A stretch of 64,000 bases of DNA from Candidatus Epulonipiscium fishelsonii. GTDB taxonomy: Bacteria > Bacillota > Clostridia > Lachnospirales > Cellulosilyticaceae. Below, piece by piece: positions 11,636-54,382 of this stretch. Location: assembly GCA_001983455.1 (NCBI GenBank), contig LJDB01000010.1:11399-75398 (forward strand). The letters run 5' to 3'. A program made the position numbers and the translations under genes. Position 1 is the stretch's first letter, and the number at the start of each line of letters is the position of its first letter. A model generated the notes under the pieces. It was not told where the DNA came from, searched no databases, and saw only the letters and a list, made by a program, of their open reading frames with translations.

Positions 11636-11766
11636 AATAATCTCCTTTTTTTAATATAAAATTATAGTACCATGTATGTATATATAAGTAAATATTTTTA
11701 ACGAAATTAAATATATTTATAACATGTTTACTAAAAACGATTCTAATTTTTTATTCATGATAACAA

Positions 11767-11787
11767 GAAAAGGCCAAAGGCCTTTTC
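11767..11787. terminator. Short GC hairpin downstream of the aminotransferase gene
   Basis: GAAAAGGCC AAA GGCCTTTTC perfect stem with A/T runs on both sides. Lies just downstream of the aminotransferase stop (11840). Confidence 0.55.
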
Positions 11788-11839
11788 TATGATCAACTTG
11801 TATAATTTATATCCTGTTTGTATAAACATTTGCAACGTT

Positions 11840-13671: not shown

Positions 13672-13960
13672 ACATCACATCCAAGCGATAAAAACCCATT
13701 GTCTATTTGGACGCATTTCATTTCCAAAAGTTCCTTGTTCTTCTGCATCCACCAAAAGAGTATTAAGCCTAAATCTAAGTATTTTTTACCAATTTAAATT
13801 TTAAAACAATAAAATATTTGACTAGTAGGGCTGATAAATTTAAAAAATAACTCTACATCCTTCACTAGTGTATTCCTCAAAATTCCAGATACATATAAAT
13901 GCTTATCTTTTTTTAATAATATTTATTAGTATAATGAATATTTATGCAAAGAATAACTCT

Positions 13961-14380
13961 GTTATCTGTGATAAAGGGTTTAGAATTAAAGGATTTAGGA
14001 GTAAAGGGAGTAAATCTGTTATACGTGATAAGGAGAAAAGGCTACAGATCTTTTCTTTTTACATGTAAGATATAAATTGTGGTTAAAAAGTTTATTATAC
14101 GTGATAAAGGATTTGGGAGTAAAGGGAGTAAATCTAGTATACGTGATAAAGGATTTGGGAGTAAAGGGAGTAAATTTGTTATACGTGATAAGGAGAAAAA
14201 GCTACAGGTCTTTTCTTTTTATACGTGATAAGGAGAAAAGGCTACAGGTCTTTTCTTTTTACATGTAAGATATGAATTGTGGTTAACAGGTCTTTTCTTT
14301 TTACATGTAAGATATGAATTGTGGTTAAAAAGTTTATTATACGTGATAAAGGATTTGGGAGTAAAGGGATAAATCAAGCT
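13961..14380. repeat. Mosaic tandem array of ~41-nt modules, each beginning TTATACGTGATAA
   Basis: Module A (GGATTTGGGAGTAAAGGGAGTAAATCT) x4. Module B (GGAGAAAAGGCTACAGGTCTTTTCTTTTT) x3 plus a partial. Module C (ACATGTAAGATATGAATTGTGGTTAA) x3. Read directly from the sequence. Confidence 0.9.
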
Positions 14381-14430
14381 AAGGCTAAGACCGTAGTTTT
14401 CACTTTAGTTTAAAACATATTTAATTTTTT

Positions 14431-14547
14431 TAATTCATGATAACGGAAAAAACGTTTTGAGTTTTTTTGGTTATTCGTGATAATAGAAAAAGCGTTTTGA
14501 GTTTTTTTGTTATTCGTGACAATAGAAAAAGCATTTTGAGTTTTTTT
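14431..14547. repeat. Three tandem ~39-nt repeats
   Basis: Three consecutive units of TTATTCGTGATAATAGAAAAAGCGTTTTGAGTTTTTTTG with few substitutions. Confidence 0.9.
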
Positions 14548-14550
14548 ATT

Positions 14551-14670
14551 ATGGGTTGTTAACTAGCTGTTACTTATTTTTTCACGTCTGCTCTACTACT
14601 AATTTTTTCACCTATTGGCTACTTATTTTTCGTGACTACTCTGCTACTTGTTTTTTTCACATGGGTTAAC
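14551..14670. repeat. Four ~25-nt repeats bracketed by ATGGGTT(GT)TAAC
   Basis: Unit GCT.TACT..TTTTTTCAC occurs four times between ATGGGTTGTTAAC (14551) and ATGGGTTAAC (14661). Confidence 0.8.
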
Positions 14671-14830
14671 TCTTAAAGTATATACCTATGTCTCACAAAA
14701 TACAATTGGCAAAATATCCTAATATACTTCTTATCACTAGTGAATTGTGTCCAATATAATTAACATTACTCCAAAATACATAATTATACATAATTGTGTA
14801 TTTTGTACAAATAAGTAATTCTAAAATTGT

Positions 14831-17188: not shown

Positions 17189-19377
17189 TTAGTTATCTTG
17201 AGTGACAACTTCAATTTTTCTATATCTATCCATTCCAGTACCTGCTGGAATAAGTTTACCAATAATAACATTTTCTTTAAGACCAATTAGTGGGTCAACT
17301 TTTCCTTTAATAGCAGCCTCGGTAAGAACTCTAGTAGTTTCTTGGAAAGAAGCAGCTGATAGGAATGATTCTGTAGCAAGAGATGCTTTAGTTATACCTA
17401 GTAAAGTATGTTTTCCTTCAGCAGGTGCCATACCTTTTTCAATCATTTCTTCATTAATTTGATCAAAATCAAGTACATCCACTAAACTTCCAGGAAGTAA
17501 ATTTGTATCTCCATTTTCTTCAATCTTAACTTTTTTAAGCATTTGACGAACAATTACTTCAATGTGCTTGTCATTTATATCAACCCCTTGAAGTCGATAT
17601 ACTCGTTGCACTTCTTGCAACATATAATCTTGAACTCCTCTAATACCTTTAATTTTAAGAATGTCATGAGGATTTATACTACCTTCTGTAAGCTCATCTC
17701 CAGCTTTAATAAAGTCTCCATCCATAACTTTAATTCTTGAACCATAAGGAATAAGATAAACTCTTGAATCATCAAGGGTATTATTTGCAATAGTAATTTC
17801 ACGTTTTTTCTTAGCTTCAGTAATAGTTACATATCCTTCAATTTCTGTTATAATTGCAAGACCTTTAGGTTTACGAGCCTCAAATAACTCTTCGATACGT
17901 GGAAGCCCTTGCGTAATATCGTCTCCTGCAATACCACCCGTATGGAATGTACGCATTGTAAGCTGTGTTCCTGGCTCACCAATGGATTGAGCTGCAATAA
18001 TTCCAACAGATTCACCTTCACGAACTTCGTTTCCAGATGACATATTTGCACCGTAACATTTTACACAAACTCCAACTTTTGATCTGCAAGATAAAGCATT
18101 TCTAATCTTAACTGTTTCAATTCCAATTCCTTCAATATATTCAGCTATTTTAGGTGAAATCATTGTATCAACTGGAACAATTACTTCCCCTGTTTCAGGA
18201 TGCACTACTGCTTCTGCTGCAAATCTTCCAGAAAGACGCTCATTCAATGGTTCAATCATTTCTGTGCCGTCTTTTACAGCTTTAACCCACATTCCAGGAA
18301 TTTCGTTTTTAGTATTGTTGTGACAACAATCTTTTTCTCTTATTATAACGTCTTGAGAAACGTCAACTAGCCTACGAGTAAGATATCCTGAGTCAGCAGT
18401 TTTTAATGCAGTATCGGCCAAACCTTTACGAGCTCCATGGGCAGAGTTAAAGAACTCTAGTACAGTAAGTCCTTCACGGAAATTTGCCTTAATTGGAAGT
18501 TCTAGTGTTTTTCCAGTTGGAGAAGACATCAGTCCCCTCATTCCAGCAAGCTGTTTAATTTGGTTATTTGAACCACGGGCACCAGAGTGTGCCATCATAT
18601 AAATGTTGTTATATTTTCCAAGTCCAGACAATAACGCTTCAGTAATTTTATCATTTGCAATGTTCCATGCTTGAATAACTTTGGTATATCGTTCGTCATC
18701 AGTCATTAGTCCACGTCTAAATAATTTTGTTACTTTATCAATGGATTGTTCTGCTTCAAGTAAATACTCACCTTTTTTAGCTGGAATAACCATATCAGAA
18801 ACAGAAACTGTCAAAGCACCACGAGTGGAATATTCAAATCCTAGGTCTTTGATATTATCTAGTAATATAGCTGTTTTAGTAGCTCCATGTTCATTTATAC
18901 ATCTTTTAATAATTTTTCCTAGCTCTTTTTTGCCCACCAAGAAGTCTATTTCATATTTTCTTGCAGGTAATTCATCGTTTTTACGTCTTTCCTCATTTTC
19001 AGCATGTTCTTTAGCTCTGTCAACAAATCCTAAATCTTGAGGAATTCTTTCATTAAATATAATTCGTCCTACGGTAATTTCTTCTCTTTTATACACTTCA
19101 CCATTAATTGTTCTACGAACTTGAATTCTAGCATGCAGTGTAATTTCTTTGTTTGCATACGCAAGCATCGCTTCCATTTCACTTTTAAAACATTTGCCTT
19201 CTCCAATTTCGCCTTCTTTGTCAAGAGTCAAGTAATATGTTCCAAGAACCATATCTTGAGAAGGAACAGCAACAGGAGCTCCATCAGACGGTTTTAGCAA
19301 GTTGTTTGGTGCTAAAAGCAAAAATCTACATTCTGCTTGTGCTTCAACAGATAAAGGTACGTGCACTGCCATTTGAT
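17189..19377 (-). CDS. rpoC: RNA polymerase beta-prime subunit, exon 2 (begins AT CAA ATG GCA GTG CAC = (D)QMAVH)
   Basis: 729 codons of conserved beta-prime sequence (trigger loop and bridge helix regions). Joining to exon 1 restores NADFDGDQMAVH in frame. Confidence 0.9.
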
Positions 19378-19460
19378 ATATGGATAGGTAACCATTTGAA
19401 ATTATCTCCAGGTTTTCCCCCCATCAGAACCGTACATGAGACTTTCATCTCATACGGCTC
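19378..19460 (-). ncRNA. Group II intron domains V and VI
   Basis: GAGCCGUAUGAGAUGAAAGUCUCAUGUACGGUUC is a 34-nt domain V with the AGC triad and a GAAA tetraloop. AUGGGGGG pairs with CCU(A)UCCAU to give domain VI with a bulged branch-point A. Confidence 0.9.
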
Positions 19461-19481
19461 GCCAACAATAATATTAACTAT

Positions 19482-21333
19482 TTATATAGTATTAATTTCT
19501 AAGCTTTCCCTAAGTTTATTGATTTTTATAATTTGTTTGTTATCTAAGTTAAGCGTTTCCATATATTCTTTAATAGTATCAATATGTGTAGCATATAGTA
19601 ATTTATGAACATTTGTTGTTACCCACATAAGATTGCTGCACTCATTTCCTCCACCTTTAATACGAGGTTTGATATGATGGCATTCCATCATATGTTTATT
19701 AAGTGGTTCTTGCGTTATAGCACATTTCCCACGTTGCCCATAAATGAGTGCTAATTTGTTGTTCAGTAAATCTACACTGTCATCCCACTTGTTACGCATT
19801 ATGAATGTAATTAAGTGGTCATAACCTTTTATACTATTGTGTGTGTATTGTCTACCATTAGGTGTGTAATTACACATATTTTGGTTAAATACTTTCACTC
19901 TTGCATATCTTACCCCGTGAACAGGGAAAAGGGTTACTGATGCAACAGTTCTAATCTTACTATGATACTTTCCGTATATGGCTAAATATGCTTTACTTTT
20001 ATTAGGTTTATTACTTAGATGATTTCTCAATCTTATATCAAAGGATTTCATAACGACATGGTTAATTTCTGCCATATCCCTAGAAACTAGACTAGGGTAG
20101 CTGATTTGTAATATTGATGTACACCTAAAATCATTGAATTAAGTTTTTGCATCTGTTTTGGTGTAGTATCTTTTTGTACCTCTTTAATTTGATTTTTGAG
20201 GTCACAAATTACATTTTTCTTAGCCTTATCTGTCATTTGAGTTCTACATGTGTATTTACGATTTTTTGATTTACCACTATCACTGTATGCTTTAAGTTTG
20301 AAACCTAGAAATTCACTATGTTTCTTTCTTAAGTTTGTGATTTATCTTGACAGAGTTCTAGGTGCAATCTCTTATGCAACCAATTAGTAGTTCGTTTGTA
20401 AACGATACTTGCTGTTTTATGGTCTTTACAAAAGATTTTAAAGTCATCTGCATATCGTACTATCCACATTTCTTTCACTTCGGAATAATTCCTGAGTGAT
20501 GCATATTTGTTTGACTGGTCTATTCTACCATCTTCTCTAACTTGCTTGTAGTCATAATCGGTTTTAAAAGTCTCCCATTGGTCACTTACCCACCAATCCA
20601 ACTCATTAAGCACTACATTAGACAATAATGGAGAGATAATACCTCCTTGTAGTGTACCTTTTGTTTGTATACCTACTCCAACAACTTCACTTTTAAGAAT
20701 TTTGCTAATAACTGTAATTAGGTTCTTATCTTGTATGCCCAGATTCCATAGTTGTTTAAGCAACTTTCCATGATTAATGTTGTCAAAGAAATCTTTAATG
20801 TCTATATCCACAACATAATGTAGTTTGCTTAAATTGACTAATGATTGGCATCTAGCTAGTGCATGGCTAGTTCCTCTGTTAGGACGAAAACCATAGCTAT
20901 GTGGGTGAAATTGTGCCTCAAGTATAGGTTCGATAACTTGCTTAATACATTGTTGTACGATTCTATCTTGTACGCATGGTATTCCTAGCGGTCTATTCTT
21001 ACCATTTGATTTAGGTATCTCAACTCTCCTCACCTTTTTAGGTCTGTAATCTCTAATAAGAGATCTTATAAATTTCACAAATCTGTCGGTCGGGAAATTG
21101 TCATAATATTTCAAAGTGACTTTATCCACTCCACATGTTTCGCTTCCTTTATTTCCTTTTAGGTTACGGTAAGCAAGTAGGATATTTCTTTCATCTTCGA
21201 TATATTTTATTAAATCGTTGAATTTGAATCCCTTTTTTGCTTTAGTGTACAATTCGTCAAATATGCTTTGCATTTCGTAGTACTCATTATTCCTTATCAA
21301 TTGTCTCTTTAGGGTTTGCCTATTCAAAGTCAA
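19482..21333 (-). pseudogene. Intron-encoded RT / maturase (domain X) / HNH protein, disrupted by two frameshifts
   Basis: Frame A 21333-20329 holds the RT domains (YADD) and a TTG start. Frame B ~20340-20087 reads TNLRKKHSEFLGFKL...GVHQYYKSATLV*. Frame C 20075-19482 holds the rest of X plus HNH (CHHIKPRIKGG...NLMWVTTNVH). Confidence 0.7.
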
Positions 21334-21811
21334 TCTACCTCCTTATACAGGATTGAGATTTCTTTTAGTCAATACGAGAACCTTTGATATATAATACTTT
21401 ATTAATATAAACATTTTTCTTAGTTAAATATTACTGTCTAAGGACTATCCCTCCACTTACATTACATAAGTATCTTTCTTAATGCGTCACTATTAAGACT
21501 TTCGGTACTGTGTCCTCGCTCAAATTGGATTAAGATGATTTCATTCTATTATAAGAACTTATACATCATATACCTTTATATCGATTACAGTTTATCTTGG
21601 TATATCCAATCTTTCCACGTTCCATTAGAACTATCTGTTCATATAGGGTTAGGTCTTGCCTATGAGCCTGTTAGCTTGATAGCACCTATAATGCTATAAG
21701 GTTTTTCATAACGGAGAGTTTTACTAAACCTCACTAACCATACTTGGTTGTATCCCTTTGCATTTCTACAAAGTCTTCGTCTAGACTCGTACATTCAGCA
21801 ATTCGCCAGTT

Positions 21812-21856
21812 GCTTATTCGTGATAACGGATTTAGTCACGTTGTTTCTAAATCTGT
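21812..21856. repeat. Copy of the dispersed hairpin element inside the intron 5' region
   Basis: GCTTATTCGTGATA + ACGGATTTAG / TCACGTTGTTT / CTAAATCTGT. The first 23 nt are 22/23 identical to 40358-40380. Confidence 0.85.
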
Positions 21857-22129
21857 TATTTGCAACATTCTAACCATACCTATTTTATAGACTTCCAGCC
21901 TATCATATGCAACCACGGACTAGATGATTTTTCGTTTATTACTTAATTTACGGCATATTTTAGCTGTCTTCACCGAGCTTCAGACCCTTTCATTCAACTG
22001 TGAATTACTTTCGCCTGTCGGAGTATTAAAGGGAGCATTTCCGAGCGTTACTTCTTCATTCTACTCTCTCGTTCTAACAGTTGTAAACTCTTTTAACGAC
22101 TGAGTTTACAGGTATCTTTTCAATACCTA

Positions 22130-23542
<1,413 letters not shown>

Positions 23543-31797: not shown

Positions 31798-33138
31798 TTA
31801 AGACGGTAATTCTGTTTCGTTCAAAGCCTTCATTACATAGTACATATTTACTAATTCTTCTGCTCTATTTTTCCAAGTATGTTTCTCACTTACCAACTTA
31901 TATGCATTTTCAATTATAGGCTGTGCTAAATCATAATTTTCTGTATAAAATCTCACTTTTTCCACTAGCTCATTTAAATTATTTGCATCATAGTAAATGA
32001 TATTTACACCATCTATAAGCTCATCATTTGCAAAACTGTTCCTATTGCTTATTACCAACGTTCTATTTAACATTGCATTAAATACTCTTTCACTACCTCC
32101 ATTTTTTACAGGATACAAATCTTGCAGTAAAATTTTGCTCTCAGCAATTTTTTCAATTATTTCAGGATACGGTAGTTCTCCATTATCTACAAAATTAGGA
32201 TATTCATTAAAAAACTTATTTTTACTATTTAACCAAAATTCTACTTTTATGTCATTATCCAATAAAGTTTTAACTACTTTCTGCCTATAGTGCATTCTTC
32301 TATGCCAATCTAGAATAATATATACTTGTTCAAATAATATTTGTTTTAAGTTTGGAATGTTCATAGCTGATTGTATATCTTCGTTTTCTAATATGACCTC
32401 TTCTATACATTGTTCCATTGTTTTATTAAAATCATTACATGCTTTATTATGAACTTCTTTAATAAATTTTTTAAATATAGTTATTTCAGATTCCTTAATC
32501 TTCCCTTTTTCTATGAATTTATTTGCTGCATTCTCAGGTAAGTCTGGTCCTGATAAATTAGCAGTCATGATTACATCTATATTTTTTTTGTTATTCATAA
32601 TAATGGATTTACTTCCAGCTTGCATTAAATGCGTTAATATTCTAGTGTTATCAATATATTTTTCATATGAATTCAAAAAACTTTCGGCAAACATTCCTAT
32701 AAATACATTGTTCTTAGGGGTATATTTCAAAAACATTTTAAAGCGAGCTGGATTATCAAGTAATACTGTGCCGACAATGACATTATTATCTGAAAAAAAT
32801 TTAAACAAAGAAGGTACAAGTGCTAAAGTTAAGCAGAAATTGATAACATAATCTACTTTTATTAAACTTTTAGGCACTCCATATTGATCAAAATCTGTTG
32901 TAGTTTGGTCCATATCTTTAAAAACAATGCTTGCTCCATCTGAATTAATAACATAATCCAAGTTTATAGAATCTTTATGAACTGCATATTGATCAAAATC
33001 TAGTATTGTTACTATATGACCCATATTTTTAAAAGTAATTTCTAGCTCATCTATAAACTTGCCTAATATCTGTCTATTATTTTTTGAAGTGTATTTAAAA
33101 AGTAATATGTTTATTTTATCATCTGTTTTTTGTGTCAA
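31798..33138 (-). CDS. CgeB-like / GT1-type glycosyltransferase, paralog 1
   Basis: 446 aa, TTG start behind GGAGGG. The C-terminal ~180 aa (..GGSERVFNAMLNRTLVISNRN..EKHTWKNRAEEL) resemble the CgeB / glycosyltransferase group 1 C-terminal fold. Confidence 0.6.
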   Translation of the reverse strand: MTQKTDDKINILLFKYTSKNNRQILGKFIDELEITFKNMGHIVTILDFDQYAVHKDSINLDYVINSDGASIVFKDMDQTTTDFDQYGVPKSLIKVDYVINFCLTLALVPSLFKFFSDNNVIVGTVLLDNPARFKMFLKYTPKNNVFIGMFAESFLNSYEKYIDNTRILTHLMQAGSKSIIMNNKKNIDVIMTANLSGPDLPENAANKFIEKGKIKESEITIFKKFIKEVHNKACNDFNKTMEQCIEEVILENEDIQSAMNIPNLKQILFEQVYIILDWHRRMHYRQKVVKTLLDNDIKVEFWLNSKNKFFNEYPNFVDNGELPYPEIIEKIAESKILLQDLYPVKNGGSERVFNAMLNRTLVISNRNSFANDELIDGVNIIYYDANNLNELVEKVRFYTENYDLAQPIIENAYKLVSEKHTWKNRAEELVNMYYVMKALNETELPS

Positions 33139-33191
33139 AGAAAATTCCCTCCTAAACTTTCATTCGTTTCATATTGCAAATTCCCAAACTT

Positions 33192-34535
33192 TTAAGATGG
33201 TGATTCTGTTTCGTTTAAATCTTTCATTACGTAGTACATATTTACTAATTCTTCTGCTCTATTTTTCCAAGTATGTTTCTCACTTACCAATTTATATGCA
33301 TTTTCAATGATAGGCTGAGCTAAATCATAATTTTCTGTATAAAATCTCACTTTTTCCACTAGCTCATTTAAATTGTTTGCATCATAGTAAATGATATTCA
33401 CTCCATCTATAAGTTCATCATTTGCAAAACTGTTCCTATTGCTTATTACCAACGTTCTATTTAACATTGCATTAAATACTCTTTCACTACCTCCATTTTT
33501 TACAGGATACAAATCTTGTAGTAAAATTTTGCTCTCAGCAATTTTTTCAATTATTTTAGGATACGGTAGTTTTCCATTATCTACAAAATTAGGATATTCA
33601 TTAAAAAACTTATTTTTACTATTTAACCAAAACTCTACTTTTATGTCATTATCCAATAAACTTTTAACTACTTTCTGCCTATAGTGCATTCTTCTATGCC
33701 AATCTAGAACAATATATACTTGTTCAAATAATATTTGTTGTAAGTCTGGAATATTCATAGCTATTTGTATATCTTTGTTTTCTAATATGACTTCTTCTAT
33801 ACATTCTTCCATAGTTTTATTAAAATCGTCAAATGCTTTATTGTAAACTTCTTCAACAAATTTTTTTAATATATTTGCGGTAGTTTCTCGAAGTTCCCAT
33901 TTTTCTATCAATTTATTTATCTTATCATCGGGTGAGTTGATTTCTCTTAAAGAAGCGGTCATAATTACATCTATATTTTTTTTATTATTCATGATAACGG
34001 ATTTACTTCCTGCTTGCATTAAATGTGTTAATATCCTAGTATTATCAATATATTTTTCATATGAATTTAAAAAACTCTCGGCAAACATTCCTATAAATAC
34101 ATTTTTTATAGGAATGTTTATTAGCAAGTTTTTAACGTGAACGGGTGGATCTATTAATAATGTTCCTACAATGACATTATTATCTGAAAAAAATTTAAAT
34201 AAAGAAGGTATTCCAGCTAACATTGAATTAAAATCAATAACATAATCTACTTTCACTGAATCTTTAGGAAATCCATATTTATCAAAATCTGTTGTAGTTT
34301 GGTCCATATCTTTAAAAACAATGCTTACTCCATCTGAATTAATAACATAATCCAAGTTTATAGAATCTTTATGAAGTGCATATTGATCAAAATCTAGTAT
34401 TGTTACTATATGCCCCATATCTTTAAAAGCAATTTCTAATTCATTTATAAACTGATTTATTATTTGCATACTAGTCATTCTTAAATGGTATCTAAATAAT
34501 ACGATATTTATCTTATTATCTACTTCTTTTGTCAA
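33192..34535 (-). CDS. CgeB-like / GT1-type glycosyltransferase, paralog 2
   Basis: 447 aa, TTG start. The 3' ~650 nt are >90% identical to paralog 1. Confidence 0.6.
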   Translation of the reverse strand: MTKEVDNKINIVLFRYHLRMTSMQIINQFINELEIAFKDMGHIVTILDFDQYALHKDSINLDYVINSDGVSIVFKDMDQTTTDFDKYGFPKDSVKVDYVIDFNSMLAGIPSLFKFFSDNNVIVGTLLIDPPVHVKNLLINIPIKNVFIGMFAESFLNSYEKYIDNTRILTHLMQAGSKSVIMNNKKNIDVIMTASLREINSPDDKINKLIEKWELRETTANILKKFVEEVYNKAFDDFNKTMEECIEEVILENKDIQIAMNIPDLQQILFEQVYIVLDWHRRMHYRQKVVKSLLDNDIKVEFWLNSKNKFFNEYPNFVDNGKLPYPKIIEKIAESKILLQDLYPVKNGGSERVFNAMLNRTLVISNRNSFANDELIDGVNIIYYDANNLNELVEKVRFYTENYDLAQPIIENAYKLVSEKHTWKNRAEELVNMYYVMKDLNETESPS

Positions 34536-34597
34536 AGAAAATCTCCTCCTAAACTTCCACTTGTTTTATATTGTAAAAAAAATTTTCATATAAACTT

Positions 34598-35947
34598 TTA
34601 AGATGGTAATTCTGTTTCATTTAAATCTTTCATTACATAGTACATATTTACTAATTCTTCTGCCCTATTTTTCCAAGTATGTTTCTCACTTGCCAATTTA
34701 TATGCATTTTCAATTATAGGCTGTGCTAAATCATAATTTTCAGTATAAAATCTCACTTTTTCCACTAGCTCATTTAAATTGTTTGCATCATAGTAAATGA
34801 TATTTACGCCATCTATAAGCTCATCATTTGCAAAACTGTTCCTATTGCTTATTACTAATGTTCTATTTAACATTGCATTAAATACTCTTTCACTACCTCC
34901 ATTTTTTACAGGATACAAATCTTGCAGTAAGATTTTACTCTCAGCAATTTTTTCTACTATTTCATGATACCACAATATTCCATTATCTACGAAATTAGGA
35001 TATTCATTAAAATATTTATTTTCACTAGCTAACCAAAATTCTACTTTTATGTCGTTATCCAACAAAGCTTTAACTACATTATACCTGTATTTATTTCTTC
35101 TATACCAATCTACAGTGAGATATAGTTCTTCAAATAATAGATGTTTTAATTCTGGCATAGCCATAGCTAATTGTATATCTTCGTTTTCTAATATGACTTC
35201 TTCTATACATTCTTCCATAGTTTTATTAAAATTATCAAATGCTTTAGTATAAAGTTCGTTAGCAAATTTTTTAACTATATTTGCAGTAGTTTCTCTAAGT
35301 TCCCATTCTTCTATCAATTGGTTTATCCTACCATCAGGTAAGTCTACTTCTTCTAATCTTAAAGCAGCAGTCATAATTACATCTATATTTTTTTCACTAT
35401 TCATGATAACAGATTTACTTCCAGCTTGCATTAAATGTATTAATATTCTAGTGTTATCAATATATTTTTCATATGAATTCAAAAAACTCTCGGCAAACAT
35501 TCCTATAAACACATTTCTTTTAGGGGTATTTTTCAATAGCCTTCTAATATAAACGGGTGGATCAGGTAATAATGTTCCTACAATGACATTATTATCTGAA
35601 AAAAATTTAAATAAAGAAGGTATTCCTGCTAAAGTTGCGCCAAAATTAATAACATAATCTACTTTTACTGAATCTTTAGGAAATCCATATTGATCAAAAT
35701 CTATTGCAGTTTGCCCCATATCTTTAAAAACAATGCTTACTCCGTCTGAATTAGTAGTATAATCTAATCTTATAGAATCTTTATGAAATGCATATTGATC
35801 AAAATCTAGTATTGTTACTATATGCCCCATATCTTTAAAAGCAATTTCTAGCTCATCTATAAACTTACCTAATATTCGTCTATTGCCCCCTCTTAAACTA
35901 TATTTAAATAATACTATATTTATCTTATTATCTGTTTCTTTTATCAA
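34598..35947 (-). CDS. CgeB-like / GT1-type glycosyltransferase, paralog 3
   Basis: 449 aa, TTG start. The last ~125 aa are nearly identical to paralogs 1 and 2. Confidence 0.6.
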   Translation of the reverse strand: MIKETDNKINIVLFKYSLRGGNRRILGKFIDELEIAFKDMGHIVTILDFDQYAFHKDSIRLDYTTNSDGVSIVFKDMGQTAIDFDQYGFPKDSVKVDYVINFGATLAGIPSLFKFFSDNNVIVGTLLPDPPVYIRRLLKNTPKRNVFIGMFAESFLNSYEKYIDNTRILIHLMQAGSKSVIMNSEKNIDVIMTAALRLEEVDLPDGRINQLIEEWELRETTANIVKKFANELYTKAFDNFNKTMEECIEEVILENEDIQLAMAMPELKHLLFEELYLTVDWYRRNKYRYNVVKALLDNDIKVEFWLASENKYFNEYPNFVDNGILWYHEIVEKIAESKILLQDLYPVKNGGSERVFNAMLNRTLVISNRNSFANDELIDGVNIIYYDANNLNELVEKVRFYTENYDLAQPIIENAYKLASEKHTWKNRAEELVNMYYVMKDLNETELPS

Positions 35948-38457: not shown

Positions 38458-40347
38458 CTACATTTTTTTAGCAATAAAAATCATTGTATCAGAAAAACCT
38501 TTTTCATCAACTTCTTTTTGTATTATATTATTTATTGACAATAATTCATTGTACAACGAATTTTCTTGTTTATCAGTTCTTAACATCTGAGAGGTTAAAA
38601 TATCAAAATATCCTTGACCAAACCCCCATTTACTTAAAATATCAAATTTGTCTTTAAGCAAATTGTCTATTCCATTCTCAGTAAATACTTGTAGATGAAT
38701 TGGAGGTATAATATGTCTATATACATTTTCATTATCTGTTAAATTTACAAATGATGCCATAGAAGGATATCTTGGAACTTCAAAAACAATAACACTATTT
38801 GGTTTTATATGTTTATAAATATAATTTATAAATTCAATAGGATTTTCTATATGTTCTAACACATTAAAAAAAGTTATTATTGTTGCTTCACTAAATATTT
38901 TTTCAATTTCTATATTTTGTACATCTGGATTTATAAACCCTTTAATAATATCAATACCATTGCTTTTTGCAAACTCTATCTCACGCTCATCAGACTCAAT
39001 CCCTATAGGGACAATACTAGTCTCTTTTGATATTATATAAAGTATTTCTCCACTACCACATCCAATATCTATCCACTTATCTATCTTAATATTATTTTCT
39101 TTCATTTCATCCAAAATATATTCTACTTTTGGCTTCGCAATAAATTCAGCTCTTTTATAAAATAATTCTTTGTCAACATAGTGATCTATTGGTGTGGTTG
39201 TATTGTTATACAAACTTTCTGTATTTGGCAAATTAGTTAAATAAATACTTCCACAGTTTCCACATTTATAATATTTATATCCATATATATCCACAAATAT
39301 TTTATTGTGTTCATCATTCAAACAAACTCTACAAAATGTTTGGACATCTTCAAAAGATAAATTATTCTCAGCCGTTTTTTTAGATTTTGAAATCATTGTT
39401 TGTATTTTAGTAATATCTCTACCTATATTACGCATATCCATTGATTTTCCATATTTAGTTTTTATAATTTTTATATTATGTTTTTTATATTTTAATTTAG
39501 CTCTTTGCACTTGTTCAATAGGTAAAATATCTTCACTTTTATAAGTTAAAGCTTTATAGTTAGTATTCAAGTCACGTTTTACTCTACGTAATCCTTCTGG
39601 TTCCAATGAGGCAGCATGGTCTGTACCTTTCCATGTTCTATCTAAAGTATAGTGCCTTTCAATAATATTTGCTCCTAAAACATACGCTGAAATGTCAATA
39701 GATATCCCATGATGATGTCCAGAAAATCCAATATCTTTTACTCTGTCTTTATACAGTCCTCTTATTCTAGTAATTTCTAATAAGCATATATCTTCTGTAG
39801 GAACAGGATATCCAGATGTGCAGGCATATAAAACTATATCTTGATTTCTGTTATTTTTCTCAAAAAACTCAACTAGTTCTTTTTCTTCTTGTTTTGTAGT
39901 CATTCCTAAAGATACATGAATTTCTCCAAAATAGTTTTTACATATCCATTCTAACATTTCATAATTATTGTTACAGGCAGAAGGAATTTTTATAAACTTA
40001 GGATTTAATGAAGCAATTTCTTTTGCTGAAGTCAAATCCCAAACTGAACAACTATATGTTATTCCAAATTTCTCACAATATATTTTAAGCTCCCTATGTT
40101 CTTCTAAGCTGAATTCCAAATATTCTCTATGTTCGCCATAAGTTTTCCCATATGAATTATAATATACGGGATGAGGAGCGTTATATTGCTCTATCGTCAA
40201 TAACTCCTTATTACATCTTTTTTGAAATTTAATTGCGTCTACTTTGCAATATATATAGGCAGTTTCTATAAGCTTTTTTGCAATATCTAACTCTCCTAAA
40301 TGATTGCAACCAACTTCAGCAATTACATAAGGTTTTTTATACTCCAT
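38458..40347 (-). CDS. NeuB-like nonulosonate synthase (TIM barrel only) fused to a zinc-ribbon plus class I SAM methyltransferase
   Basis: N-terminus PYVIAEVGCNHLGELDIAKKLI is the NeuB/PseI/LegI signature. Middle has CRVC...CGNC. C-terminus WIDIGCGSGE is SAM motif I. Confidence 0.75.
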   Translation of the reverse strand: MEYKKPYVIAEVGCNHLGELDIAKKLIETAYIYCKVDAIKFQKRCNKELLTIEQYNAPHPVYYNSYGKTYGEHREYLEFSLEEHRELKIYCEKFGITYSCSVWDLTSAKEIASLNPKFIKIPSACNNNYEMLEWICKNYFGEIHVSLGMTTKQEEKELVEFFEKNNRNQDIVLYACTSGYPVPTEDICLLEITRIRGLYKDRVKDIGFSGHHHGISIDISAYVLGANIIERHYTLDRTWKGTDHAASLEPEGLRRVKRDLNTNYKALTYKSEDILPIEQVQRAKLKYKKHNIKIIKTKYGKSMDMRNIGRDITKIQTMISKSKKTAENNLSFEDVQTFCRVCLNDEHNKIFVDIYGYKYYKCGNCGSIYLTNLPNTESLYNNTTTPIDHYVDKELFYKRAEFIAKPKVEYILDEMKENNIKIDKWIDIGCGSGEILYIISKETSIVPIGIESDEREIEFAKSNGIDIIKGFINPDVQNIEIEKIFSEATIITFFNVLEHIENPIEFINYIYKHIKPNSVIVFEVPRYPSMASFVNLTDNENVYRHIIPPIHLQVFTENGIDNLLKDKFDILSKWGFGQGYFDILTSQMLRTDKQENSLYNELLSINNIIQKEVDEKGFSDTMIFIAKKM

Positions 40348-40690
40348 AACTAGGCTCCTTATTCATGATAACGGATTTAGGAACAACGTGACTAAAGCTG
40401 TCATTGGTAATGCATATTTTACATTGTTTAATTATATCTATTAACTCATATTCTAATAAATCTTCAATTAAAATATAATCTTCGTTTTCAATTGCTTTAG
40501 TCAATTCCGTAAATACCTCTGCAATTTGAGATGAATTTTGAATTGTTAATATTGATGATATCTGTACATATATTTGCAAACTAATTGTAAGTATTTTACT
40601 AACTAAAAAAATTGTAAAACTTTGTTTTGAAAGTATTGATTGAACTAAGTCTTCTAACAAATCTAATTGTTTAATTAAATTATTTTCCAT
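40337..40690 (-). CDS. Hypothetical helical protein (117 aa)
   Basis: ORF between maf and the NeuB-MTase gene with no recognisable motif. Its last ~20 codons are encoded by the dispersed hairpin element. Confidence 0.4.
   Translation of the reverse strand: MENNLIKQLDLLEDLVQSILSKQSFTIFLVSKILTISLQIYVQISSILTIQNSSQIAEVFTELTKAIENEDYILIEDLLEYELIDIIKQCKICITNDSFSHVVPKSVIMNKEPSYGV
40356..40401. repeat. Dispersed hairpin element immediately upstream of the NeuB-MTase start
   Basis: CTCCTTATTCATGATA + ACGGATTTAG / GAACAACGTGA / CTAAAGCTGT. Related copies at 21812-21856 and 54213-54257. Confidence 0.85.
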
Positions 40691-52893: not shown

Positions 52894-54201
52894 TTATCCT
52901 TGAATTAATTGTAAGATGGTATTTGGCAATTCATTAGCTTTGCTAAGCATAGCAGTTGCACTTTGAGTTAAAACATTTGTACGAGTATATTCCGCCATTT
53001 CTGCAGCCATATCTGTATCTTGAATTTGAGAAAGTGACATTGTCATATTTTCTTCAGAAACACCCAAGTTTTCTACAGTATGTTCAAGACGATTTTGATA
53101 TGCGCCCATAGACGAACGGGTGGAAGAAACTTTATTTATAGCCTTATCAATTGCTCCAATAGCATAATGTATATCATCATCTTCTGTAAGATTTAGTCCC
53201 GCTCGACTCATTTCAATACCAATACCTTCTTCGATATTAGCAGCAACTCCATATCCAGGAGTTCCTGGAGGTGCACTAAGACCTAATTCGTATGAAGACA
53301 TTGAGCCCAATTTTACTTCTAACAATTGGTTTGCATTCGCCCCAATTTGAAGGCCTATGTTTGTTTGTGGTATTCCTCCAGGACTAGAGATCATATAATT
53401 GCCAATGCTGCCTTTTTCCTTGGCTGTAAGTTTAAATTCTCCAGCATCTTCTTTAAATACAAAGTTGTCAAATCCAGGAGAGTCATTATATGATTTTAAA
53501 ACATCTGAAGTACTGCCGAGAGGTTCTTTTTGGCTAATATCGATTGGCTGGGCCATCCCAATGTATGGTCCGTTAGCTGAATTGTAATATTCAAACACAA
53601 CTCCGTCCAAAGTAAATCCTGTACCTGCTGTTGCTGCACTACTGTCTAGTATTTGTACTGTATACTCGGCATATTCATCCAACGTAGCTAGTCTTGGGTC
53701 ACTTGTTAAATCTGCTATTTCCACTCCATTTTCATCTACTGTTCTTGTCAACTTTATTTCAAAAGAAGCTTCTGCCACAGGAGTTCCTCCATTAAGTAAA
53801 GGCATAGTATTAAATTCGGTATTTCCTGATATCACATTTATCTCAGAAATAAGATGATCAATTTCTTTTTGAATTTGCTCACGGTCGCTTGTTCCATATG
53901 TACCATTTGCTGCTTGAATTGAAAGCTCTCTCATACGTTGAAGCATATCGTGCACTTCGTTTAGTGACCCTTCTGCTGTTTGGATCATAGAAATGCCATC
54001 CATTGCATTGTTATTTGCTTGCTTTAGCCCTTGAACCTGTGTTTTCATTTTCTGAGAAATAGCCATACCTGCAACATCATCTGCTGCCTTATTAATTCGT
54101 AAACCAGAAGATAATTTTTCTAGTGAGCTATTTAGTGCACCTGTATTTTGGTGCAAAGCATTTAGACCTTGCAAAGCTGGTATATTATTATTAATTTTCA
54201 T
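52894..54201 (-). CDS. fliC: Flagellin, paralog 1 (435 aa)
   Basis: Conserved D0/D1 termini (LSSGLRINKAADDVAGMAISQKM ... QNRLEHTVENL ... LPNTILQLIQG) with a variable centre. Confidence 0.9.
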   Translation of the reverse strand: MKINNNIPALQGLNALHQNTGALNSSLEKLSSGLRINKAADDVAGMAISQKMKTQVQGLKQANNNAMDGISMIQTAEGSLNEVHDMLQRMRELSIQAANGTYGTSDREQIQKEIDHLISEINVISGNTEFNTMPLLNGGTPVAEASFEIKLTRTVDENGVEIADLTSDPRLATLDEYAEYTVQILDSSAATAGTGFTLDGVVFEYYNSANGPYIGMAQPIDISQKEPLGSTSDVLKSYNDSPGFDNFVFKEDAGEFKLTAKEKGSIGNYMISSPGGIPQTNIGLQIGANANQLLEVKLGSMSSYELGLSAPPGTPGYGVAANIEEGIGIEMSRAGLNLTEDDDIHYAIGAIDKAINKVSSTRSSMGAYQNRLEHTVENLGVSEENMTMSLSQIQDTDMAAEMAEYTRTNVLTQSATAMLSKANELPNTILQLIQG

Positions 54202-54212
54202 ATCAAAATACT

Positions 54213-54257
54213 CCTTATTTGTTATAACAGATTTAGGAACAAGCGGACCTAATCTGT
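54213..54257 (-). promoter_or_regulatory. 5'-UTR hairpin of flagellin 1 (member of the dispersed hairpin family)
   Basis: RNA ACAGAUUAGG-UCCGCUUGUU-CCUAAAUCUGU is followed by UAUAACAAAUAAGGAG and the ATG. ~75% identical to 40356-40401. Confidence 0.6.
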
Positions 54258-54382
54258 CACTCGAAATTTTTATTGATCAAAATATATATCGTATTTTAAT
54301 CATGTACACAATAATATTTTTTGGGAAAATTATTTAGAAAATGAGATAAGTTTAAAACTAGTTTACATATTTTTTAAACATA

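Follow-up and report, generated by a model that had tools for sequence, protein, structure and literature searches.

The very small dispersed repeats (SDR) of cyanobacteria are mobile palindromes of 20-50 nt that carry fixed short flanks, nest in one another and stack. Integron attC sites are not known to be shorter than 57 nt. The GC clusters of yeast mitochondria are likewise mobile palindromes of 20-50 nt, bordered by short fixed repeats, that nest and stack (PMC4478555). REPs, found in hundreds of copies in Proteobacteria, are thought to move as single-stranded DNA by means of an HUH Y1 enzyme (PMC3116915). For the giant Epulopiscium, the paper on the type B genome describes mobile elements as almost absent and lists MITEs as 'not determined' (PMC10756260).

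Why should a giant bacterium of the surgeonfish gut carry one and the same hairpin in front of a NeuB-methyltransferase gene, in front of a flagellin gene and inside an intron? The window analysed here is a stretch of 64,000 nucleotides (C10:11399-75398; contig LJDB01000010.1) of the 3.38-Mb draft genome of Candidatus Epulonipiscium fishelsonii (31% GC; G000), which we compared with a sister species whose genome is 76% complete (G001). The hairpin is one copy of a 42-nt selfish element that has been inserted more than 100 times, always at TTATT. Literature searches, the paper describing the type A genomes not being among the texts covered, yielded no description of this element.

Results

Copies of the element in the window

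All three copies named in the original prediction are present in the window (Table 1), although their true boundaries lie 2-4 nt further to the right than had been proposed. The gene identities hold as well: Pfam recognizes the NeuB and methyltransferase fusion and the flagellin, and Rfam the group II intron that splits rpoC. No Rfam family matches the element itself. On the plus strand the three copies read TTATT-C(A/G)T-GATAAC-GGATTTAG-(11-nt loop)-CTAAATC(T)G-TTATT. The copy in the NeuB leader has the layout TTATT, then CATGATAACGGATTTAG-GAACAACGTGA-CTAAAGCTGTCATT, with mutations in its right arm; the inserted 42 nt are positions 40364-40405. It shares 21 of 22 bases of head and left arm with the intron copy, and 36 of 47 positions with the flagellin copy. 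The latter is placed between a sigD-like -10 (CGATAT) and the Shine-Dalgarno sequence (SD); the -10 itself falls at 54285-54300 of the minus strand. The intron copy sits between the match to intron domains D1-D4 and the reverse transcriptase ORF. In this copy the loop (TCACGTTGTTT) is flipped with respect to head and arms, a rare state (2/78 full type A copies) that fits recombination or a template switch between the arms, inside the G/T asymmetry described below. The intron spans 19378-22085 (minus strand) and separates exon ORFs at 22127-23506 and 17189-19372; its reverse transcriptase frame appears as two ORFs (20329-21333 and 19482-20075), and diverged paralogs of it lie on C43, C57, C55 and C12.

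Table 1. Features of the window, given in window positions, and of the resident insertion sequence, given in contig positions.
Feature	Position	Strand	Remarks
Type A copy, NeuB-methyltransferase leader	40359..40405	+	nhmmer E = 2.7e-14
Type A copy inside rpoC group II intron	21814..21860	+	profile match
Type A copy, flagellin 1 leader	54215..54261	+	diverged (77%); E = 1.4e-5
NeuB + methyltransferase fusion gene	38458-40347	minus	Pfam
NeuB-methyltransferase start codon and SD AAGGAG	40345..40360	-	start codon 40345-40347; SD 40355-40360
117-aa ORF	40337..40690	-	last ~21 codons run through element and SD; sister ortholog 96 aa
Flagellin gene (flagellin 1)	52894-54201	minus	Pfam
Wider-family module	11751..11797	+	head TTATTCATGATAA, then other hairpin AAGAAAAGGCC-AAA-GGCCTTTTCT
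Array of TTATACGTGATAA-headed modules	13989..14390	+	40-42-nt units, wider family
Three tandem 39-nt modules	14431..14552	+	head + AAAAAGCGTTTTGAG(C/T)TTTTT hairpin, type B-like
Composite repeat, ~1 kb	13800..14825	+	ORF-less; hosts module arrays
IS200-type insertion sequence	G000 C100:31434-32172		copies at ends of C50, C86, C22, C3, C91, C48, C12, C32

With at most one mismatch allowed, the window has 17 matches to the core TTATWCRTGATAA; 100 shuffled sequences have 1.7 +/- 1.3, and none of them reaches 17. Among the matches are those at 11751, 14431, 14471 and 14510, as well as six copies or near copies of TTATACGTGATAA (14019-14349).

These arrays are housed in the composite repeat of Table 1, which has no match in Rfam. 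The genome contains the left arm (13800-13950), which is promoter-like and includes TAGTATAAT, 26 times, and the right arm (14660-14825) 47 times, the copies of the latter being 75-91% identical and in many cases located at contig ends. Left and right arms pair up 0.65-1.4 kb apart on either side of variable arrays of hairpin modules, and the TTATT beside the left arm is an insertion hot spot. We attribute the fragmented state of the assemblies to the hairpin elements and this repeat.

Three tandem glycosyltransferase paralogs in the window (31798-35947, minus strand; ~447 aa, 82% identical) encode the peptide SKSVIMN with AAATCCGTTATCATGAATAA, a 21-nt match to the right arm and head of the element. 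A recent in-frame insertion was rejected for this look-alike (33985, 35397, 32591), since all three paralogs encode it and no indel accompanies it; the match may be due to chance or to a very old exaptation.

Genome-wide census and consensus

The search for further copies of core and hairpin, for which the original prediction had called, extended to the whole genome. A profile built from 56 seed copies detects 129 type A loci at the cut-off of E < 0.01 and 118 at E < 1e-3 (nhmmer). On a crude longest-ORF map made for this analysis, 116 of the 129 (90%) are intergenic, though ORFs cover 84% of the genome; the remainder lie at ORF ends or within small dubious ORFs. The type A consensus is TTATTCGTGATAACGGATTTAGGAACAACGTGACTAAATCTGTTATT, in full TTATTCgTGATAACGGATTTAGGAACAACGTGACTAAATCTGTTATT, and the flanks beyond it are unconserved. 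Forty-two nucleotides are inserted, and the element measures 47 nt when both TTATT are included, with the arms GATAACGGATTTAG and CTAAATCTGTTATT as terminal inverted repeats. Nearly all copies have TTATT at both ends, and where one end deviates the other does not deviate to match. The many copies are without coding capacity. Clusters are direct tandems in which neighboring copies share a TTATT, giving a period of 42 nt. Where the hairpin has its foot, two type A copies (C13:45714 and C105:48321) show 7 nt duplicated internally (GATAACAGATAACAG), which suggests replication slippage within elements.

A wider family with covarying stems

The head alone, written as TTAT[TA]C[AG]TGA[TC]AA, occurs 136 times against 5.5 expected. 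The common frame of the family is the head TTATTCRT-GATAA and the tail TTATT, whereas the stems differ. Alternative stems following the head include GGGAAAAAGC-gttttga-GCTTTTTCTC, GAAGAAAAGGC-taaag-aTCTTTTCTTC and TGATGGAAAGTC-aaag-ATTTTCCATCA, each ending in TTATT, and others exist. In 131 of 296 heads with at most one mismatch, a hairpin of 9 or more pairs begins at GATAA, compared with 2.9% of control GATAA sites; with further type A loci added, the family comes to ~187 members. Covariation was likewise examined, in 32 non-A members of equal length: both sides change in 10 of 15 stem pairs, and the covariation score of 0.46 exceeds that of shuffled alignments (0.21; 0/500 reach it) and of slid partners (at most 0.18), with rows that are related copies preselected for having a hairpin. 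What does not vary is the two TTATT, the linker CRT and GATAA, the last being complementary to both TTATT.

One strand folds better than the other

The predicted hairpin of type A has 14 pairs. The strand that carries the head is predicted to fold at -15.0 kcal/mol (z = -5.2), its complement at -8.8. Wobble pairs are placed asymmetrically: G.T, almost never T.G, is found at closing position 0 (81%) and at position 6 (41%). On the complement these conserved pairs turn into A.C mismatches, which is why the head strand folds better. In all three window copies the head strand is antisense to the local genes. In mRNA sense, the hairpin lies outside the predicted fold of the NeuB leader (z = +0.18); it is part of the predicted fold of the flagellin 1 leader, which is not distinguishable from shuffles (z = -0.9).

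Empty and filled sites

Has the element moved? Only a subset of sites can be compared, and at every one of these the element proves to be an insertion. The NeuB leader region aligns at 76-82% throughout with the sister species, which is without the element: the empty site reads CTCCTTATT directly followed by TCATAC, the filled one CTCCTTATT, then the insert CATGATAAC...GCTGTCATT, then GGTAATG. Conversely, at four sites filled in the sister species (L037, L039, L038, L049) the flanks are adjacent on one G000 contig and the element is absent. Paralogs tell the same story. The leaders of four flagellin paralogs of the sister species and of flagellin 2 of the window are without it, and the distance from the sigD-like -10 to the ATG is ~40 nt in one sister-species paralog and ~85 nt in flagellin 1, whose leader the element lengthens by ~45 nt relative to that paralog. 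The 47-nt segment is also missing from the paralogous group II introns on C55, C43 and C57. The cleanest case is offered by paralogs of the 1-kb repeat, where C50 has no module, C73 a type B module, and C26, in addition to that type B module, one of type A that is an exact 42-nt insertion after the TTATT ending type B.

These empty sites in orthologs and paralogs show the element to be mobile. Empty sites hold a single TTATT and filled sites are flanked by two; insertion of 42 nt after TTATT fits the data, and a 5-bp duplication of a fixed target would look identical. Since insertion regenerates the target, elements stack into tandem and mosaic arrays.

The NeuB leader and the 117-aa ORF

Two copies adjoin an SD on the minus strand, as had been noted (...GTTATCATGAATAAGGAG-N7-ATG). 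In gene-strand order, the NeuB-methyltransferase and flagellin copies run hairpin, GTTATCAYGAATAA, SD, ATG. The empty site of the sister species already carries AATAAGGAG-N-ATG, and the SD is therefore part of the NeuB gene and was not supplied by the element. The proposal that the element provides the 3' end of the 117-aa ORF is borne out, as this ORF reads through it; the sister ortholog ends at a TAA inside AATAAGGAG. With the orthologous site empty, insertion into a gene end at 40356 is also confirmed.

Gene context

On the head side of full type A copies we count 45 gene starts and 29 gene ends, on the tail side 42 and 32. Copies between co-directional genes are 35 sense and 38 antisense. 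Two positional clusters stand out, heads lying 11-25 nt from a start codon and tails overlapping a convergent stop. Both are explained by the target: the complement of TTATT, AATAA, is common just upstream of SDs and around stops, where it contains TAA. The same preference accounts for the positions beside the SD in the NeuB and flagellin leaders. Scans with consensus terminator models call no terminator at the window copies.

Distribution across genomes

A 38-mer of the element, searched with at most 3 mismatches in genomes of the same family and order, matches 52 times in G000, 19 times in the sister species, once in G023 and not at all in 38 others; the reversed control pattern has no matches. 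For the 13-nt head the counts are 119 in G000 and 39 in the sister species; across 39 further genomes of the family they stay at the control level of 0-5. Scanned for the pattern, species genomes reveal one other rich carrier only, Ca. Epulonipiscium fishelsonii A1 (LJHD01). The element family is confined to the genus Ca. Epulonipiscium. No copies were found in a viral collection, and a metagenome scan returned five contigs only, all from one project and ~90% identical to this genome.

The same species-genome scan lists one exact type A copy, at a contig end in a MAG of Ca. Epulonipiscioides saccharophilum. This copy (L001/L010; LNZM01000046, positions 113-158) is accompanied by a second module, and the contig also holds stretches 94-98% identical to the genome studied here. 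Elsewhere the MAG has no full type A copy and matches the 13-nt head once only; mis-binning or transfer is possible.

Target habit and candidate enzymes

A hairpin counted as strong if it reached -8 kcal/mol or lower, fell within 40 nt and had the left TTATT as its end. Such a hairpin directly precedes 24% of the 94 solo elements on their 5' side, compared with 5% of 1500 control intergenic TTATT sites, while enrichment at the opposite flank is marginal (6% vs 2%, p = 0.047).

Three Y1 transposase genes are present in the genome (PF01797, NF033573), on C8, C100 and C50, all of IS200/IS605 type (NCBIfam). One of them belongs to the resident IS200-type insertion sequence, which is ~740 bp long, occurs in at least 6 copies and encodes a 168-aa TnpA (NF033573; C100:31571-32077); the copy on C50 has an internal stop. 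Its left junctions lie 3' of TTATT, TTGTT or TTTTT, and of TTTAT in one diverged copy, and five of six directly follow a hairpin and T tract like those of a terminator. At its right end a hairpin is followed by TTTTGATT, and the type A copy at C43:108116 abuts a solo hairpin resembling this end. IS200 hairpins are GC-rich, and their spacing to the cleavage sites is unlike that of the 42-nt element.

Several searches for a dedicated enzyme or parent were negative. The flanks of the Y1 transposase genes, inspected for a REPtron, hold no copy of the element. The RAYT model NF047646, whose cut-off is 80 bits, scores at most 33 in G000 and G001. Head pairs no more than 6 kb apart, which could mark a longer parent with the same ends, enclose housekeeping genes only (Ddl, M42 peptidase, EF-Ts and HtpG are bracketed by two copies). 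The integron integrase model TIGR02249 has no match in G000 or G001. Not even a weak Xer-type hit was obtained with it, while 14/14 control genomes gave weak hits; this may be a search artefact or a real lack of close Xer relatives in Epulonipiscium.

Replication strand was assigned by gene-strand majority and GC skew. The bias is weak (93:66, head strand on the G-poor strand, p = 0.04) and runs in a direction other than would be expected for elements of IS608 type.

Discussion

The leader and intron hairpins, the extended ORF, the tandem arrays and the shared core are all accounted for by one family of tiny mobile elements. Of the three origins originally considered, the MITE/REP-like one is upheld by more than 100 intergenic copies in one genus with precise empty and filled sites. 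In our best reading of the sequences, the element would be a non-autonomous, REP/MITE-like unit that moves as single-stranded DNA, and taken as a whole we consider it probable that we are dealing with a tiny non-autonomous mobile element whose route would be single-stranded and whose positions in leaders are incidental.

How might such an element move? As single-stranded DNA, its hairpin would be recognized by an HUH/Y1-type enzyme that cuts 3' of TTATT at both ends; GATAA at the foot of the hairpin is complementary to both TTATT. The cut strand would then be joined to another TTATT, preferably one following a hairpin, for example that of a terminator. HUH-type chemistry is proposed on account of the parallel in target habit with the resident IS200-type element, whose TnpA, acting in trans, would be the best candidate enzyme. 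Speaking against it are the unlike hairpins and spacings, the lack of copies beside transposase genes, of a RAYT and of a longer parent, and the direction and weakness of the replication-strand bias.

Mobility without an HUH/Y1 enzyme is an alternative that we regard as possible, though we do not favor it. A recombinase could act on the palindrome TTAT-TCRTG-ATAA in an attC- or Xer-like manner, or the copies could spread through template switches between TTATT repeats during replication or by a genus-specific nuclease. No cognate transposase lies beside any copy, the geometry differs from that of IS200/IS605 ends, replication shows only a weak strand bias, and the plan of a variable folded center between conserved ends, in ORF-less arrays, recalls the attC sites of integrons. 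Yet the integron integrase model TIGR02249 detects nothing, the R''/R' core consensus is unmatched, and the G.T strand asymmetry together with hairpin-adjacent targets, as in the resident IS200, fits single-stranded HUH chemistry.

Could the copies instead be kept for a function in the host? As a cis-acting RNA, the hairpin would serve as a 5' stabilizer, processing site or terminator selected in flagellin and glycosylation leaders. Two copies do stand in 5' leaders immediately before the SD, the hairpin is within the predicted flagellin 1 leader fold, and the head is 11-25 nt from a start codon in 11/78 full copies. Against this, the element is absent from the orthologous NeuB leader and from all flagellin paralog leaders examined, its orientation to flanking genes is unbiased, the transcribed strand is the weaker one (z = +0.18 for NeuB, z = -0.9 for flagellin 1), terminator scans call no site at the window copies and the AATAA target accounts for the position beside the SD; we find such a role quite unlikely. 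The original prediction had offered a shared operator or a 5' stabilizer as options, and random orientation combined with a weak hairpin in mRNA sense leaves both unsupported: orthologous and paralogous leaders do without the element, copies flank unrelated housekeeping genes both ways, and the hairpin is not in the fold of the NeuB mRNA. Neither a fixed orientation to the transcript nor conservation at orthologous loci, as would mark a cis-regulatory element, was found. Highly improbable, in our judgment, is that the head TTATTCRTGATAA is a double-stranded binding site, as operator or nucleoid organizer, for a genus-specific protein for which the copies are retained. The 13-nt head is indeed the most conserved part and quasi-palindromic, and the authors of the type B genome speculated that repeats might assist giant polyploid cells in managing their DNA (PMC10756260). 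The copies, however, are insertions that differ between the two species, what the G.T asymmetry and the stem covariation indicate is recognition of a folded single strand, not of a duplex, and the neighboring genes share no common function. Any effect of the mobile element on the NeuB and flagellin mRNAs appears, from sequence and predicted folds, to be incidental.

The published view of Epulopiscium as nearly free of mobile elements needs qualification, as the type A lineage has more than 180 such elements and a 1-kb repeat in 26-47 copies. The element, 42 nt long, with a single hairpin and invariable TTATT ends, offers a natural substrate of very small size. With dozens of variant stems and a candidate enzyme to hand, the rules of hairpin-guided single-stranded transposition become directly testable. 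We tentatively suggest that these are minimal single-hairpin transposable modules of an undescribed class, moved in trans by the IS200-type TnpA or another enzyme. If so, a 13-nt head and a TTATT tail would frame interchangeable stems, GATAA would guide both TTATT cleavages, and the modules would be aimed at sites with a hairpin plus T tract such as terminators. They would then represent, in a Firmicute, an equivalent of the REP/RAYT system that lacks the RAYT and is spreading in a giant bacterium of extreme polyploidy.

How does the element compare with the systems named at the outset? The core sites of integron attC, RYYYAAC and GTTRRRY, are not matched by its cores TGATAAC and GTTATTC, and its 42-nt unit is below the attC minimum. 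Cyanobacterial SDR and mitochondrial GC clusters resemble it in size and stacking, and for them, too, the mobilizing enzyme is not known; both SDR and GC clusters differ from it in having unrelated sequences and hosts and no common head with interchangeable stems. MITEs such as Correia/NEMIS, RUP, BOX and ERIC are similarly non-coding and intergenic, have terminal inverted repeats, are often co-transcribed with neighboring genes and can extend ORFs. They are, however, 100-200 nt in length, and a parent IS determines their target duplications, whereas in the element TTATT is invariant, its two copies show no covariation, and there is no parent IS whose ends match.

In the way it works, the element stands nearest to REP/REPIN and to palindromic elements derived from IS200/IS605. 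With REP/REPIN (PMC3116915) it shares short imperfect palindromes in extragenic positions and at high copy number, a conserved single-stranded motif 5' of the hairpin, class-specific stems, conserved stem mismatches, and occurrence as singlets and clusters. REPs, in contrast, have GTAG 5' of the hairpin where the element has TTATTCRT and AT-rich stems; they form inverted doublets instead of direct tandems sharing TTATT, depend on Proteobacteria and not on a Firmicute of the Lachnospirales as hosts, and go with a RAYT gene, usually REP-flanked, which this genome lacks. Each IS200/IS605 element has distinct subterminal hairpins at its two ends, separated from the cleavage sites by spacers, unlike the single 37-39-nt hairpin that serves both ends here and whose 3' arm contains the proposed cleavage pentamer, and any described PATE is far larger than 42 nt. 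IS200/IS605 and PATEs insert just 3' of a pentanucleotide or tetranucleotide that is fixed, no variable duplication being made, and the element appears to do likewise. They depend on a hairpin and favor one strand, as the element would, judged from its folding. With the resident IS200-type element it shares, moreover, the target itself, TTNTT after a hairpin.
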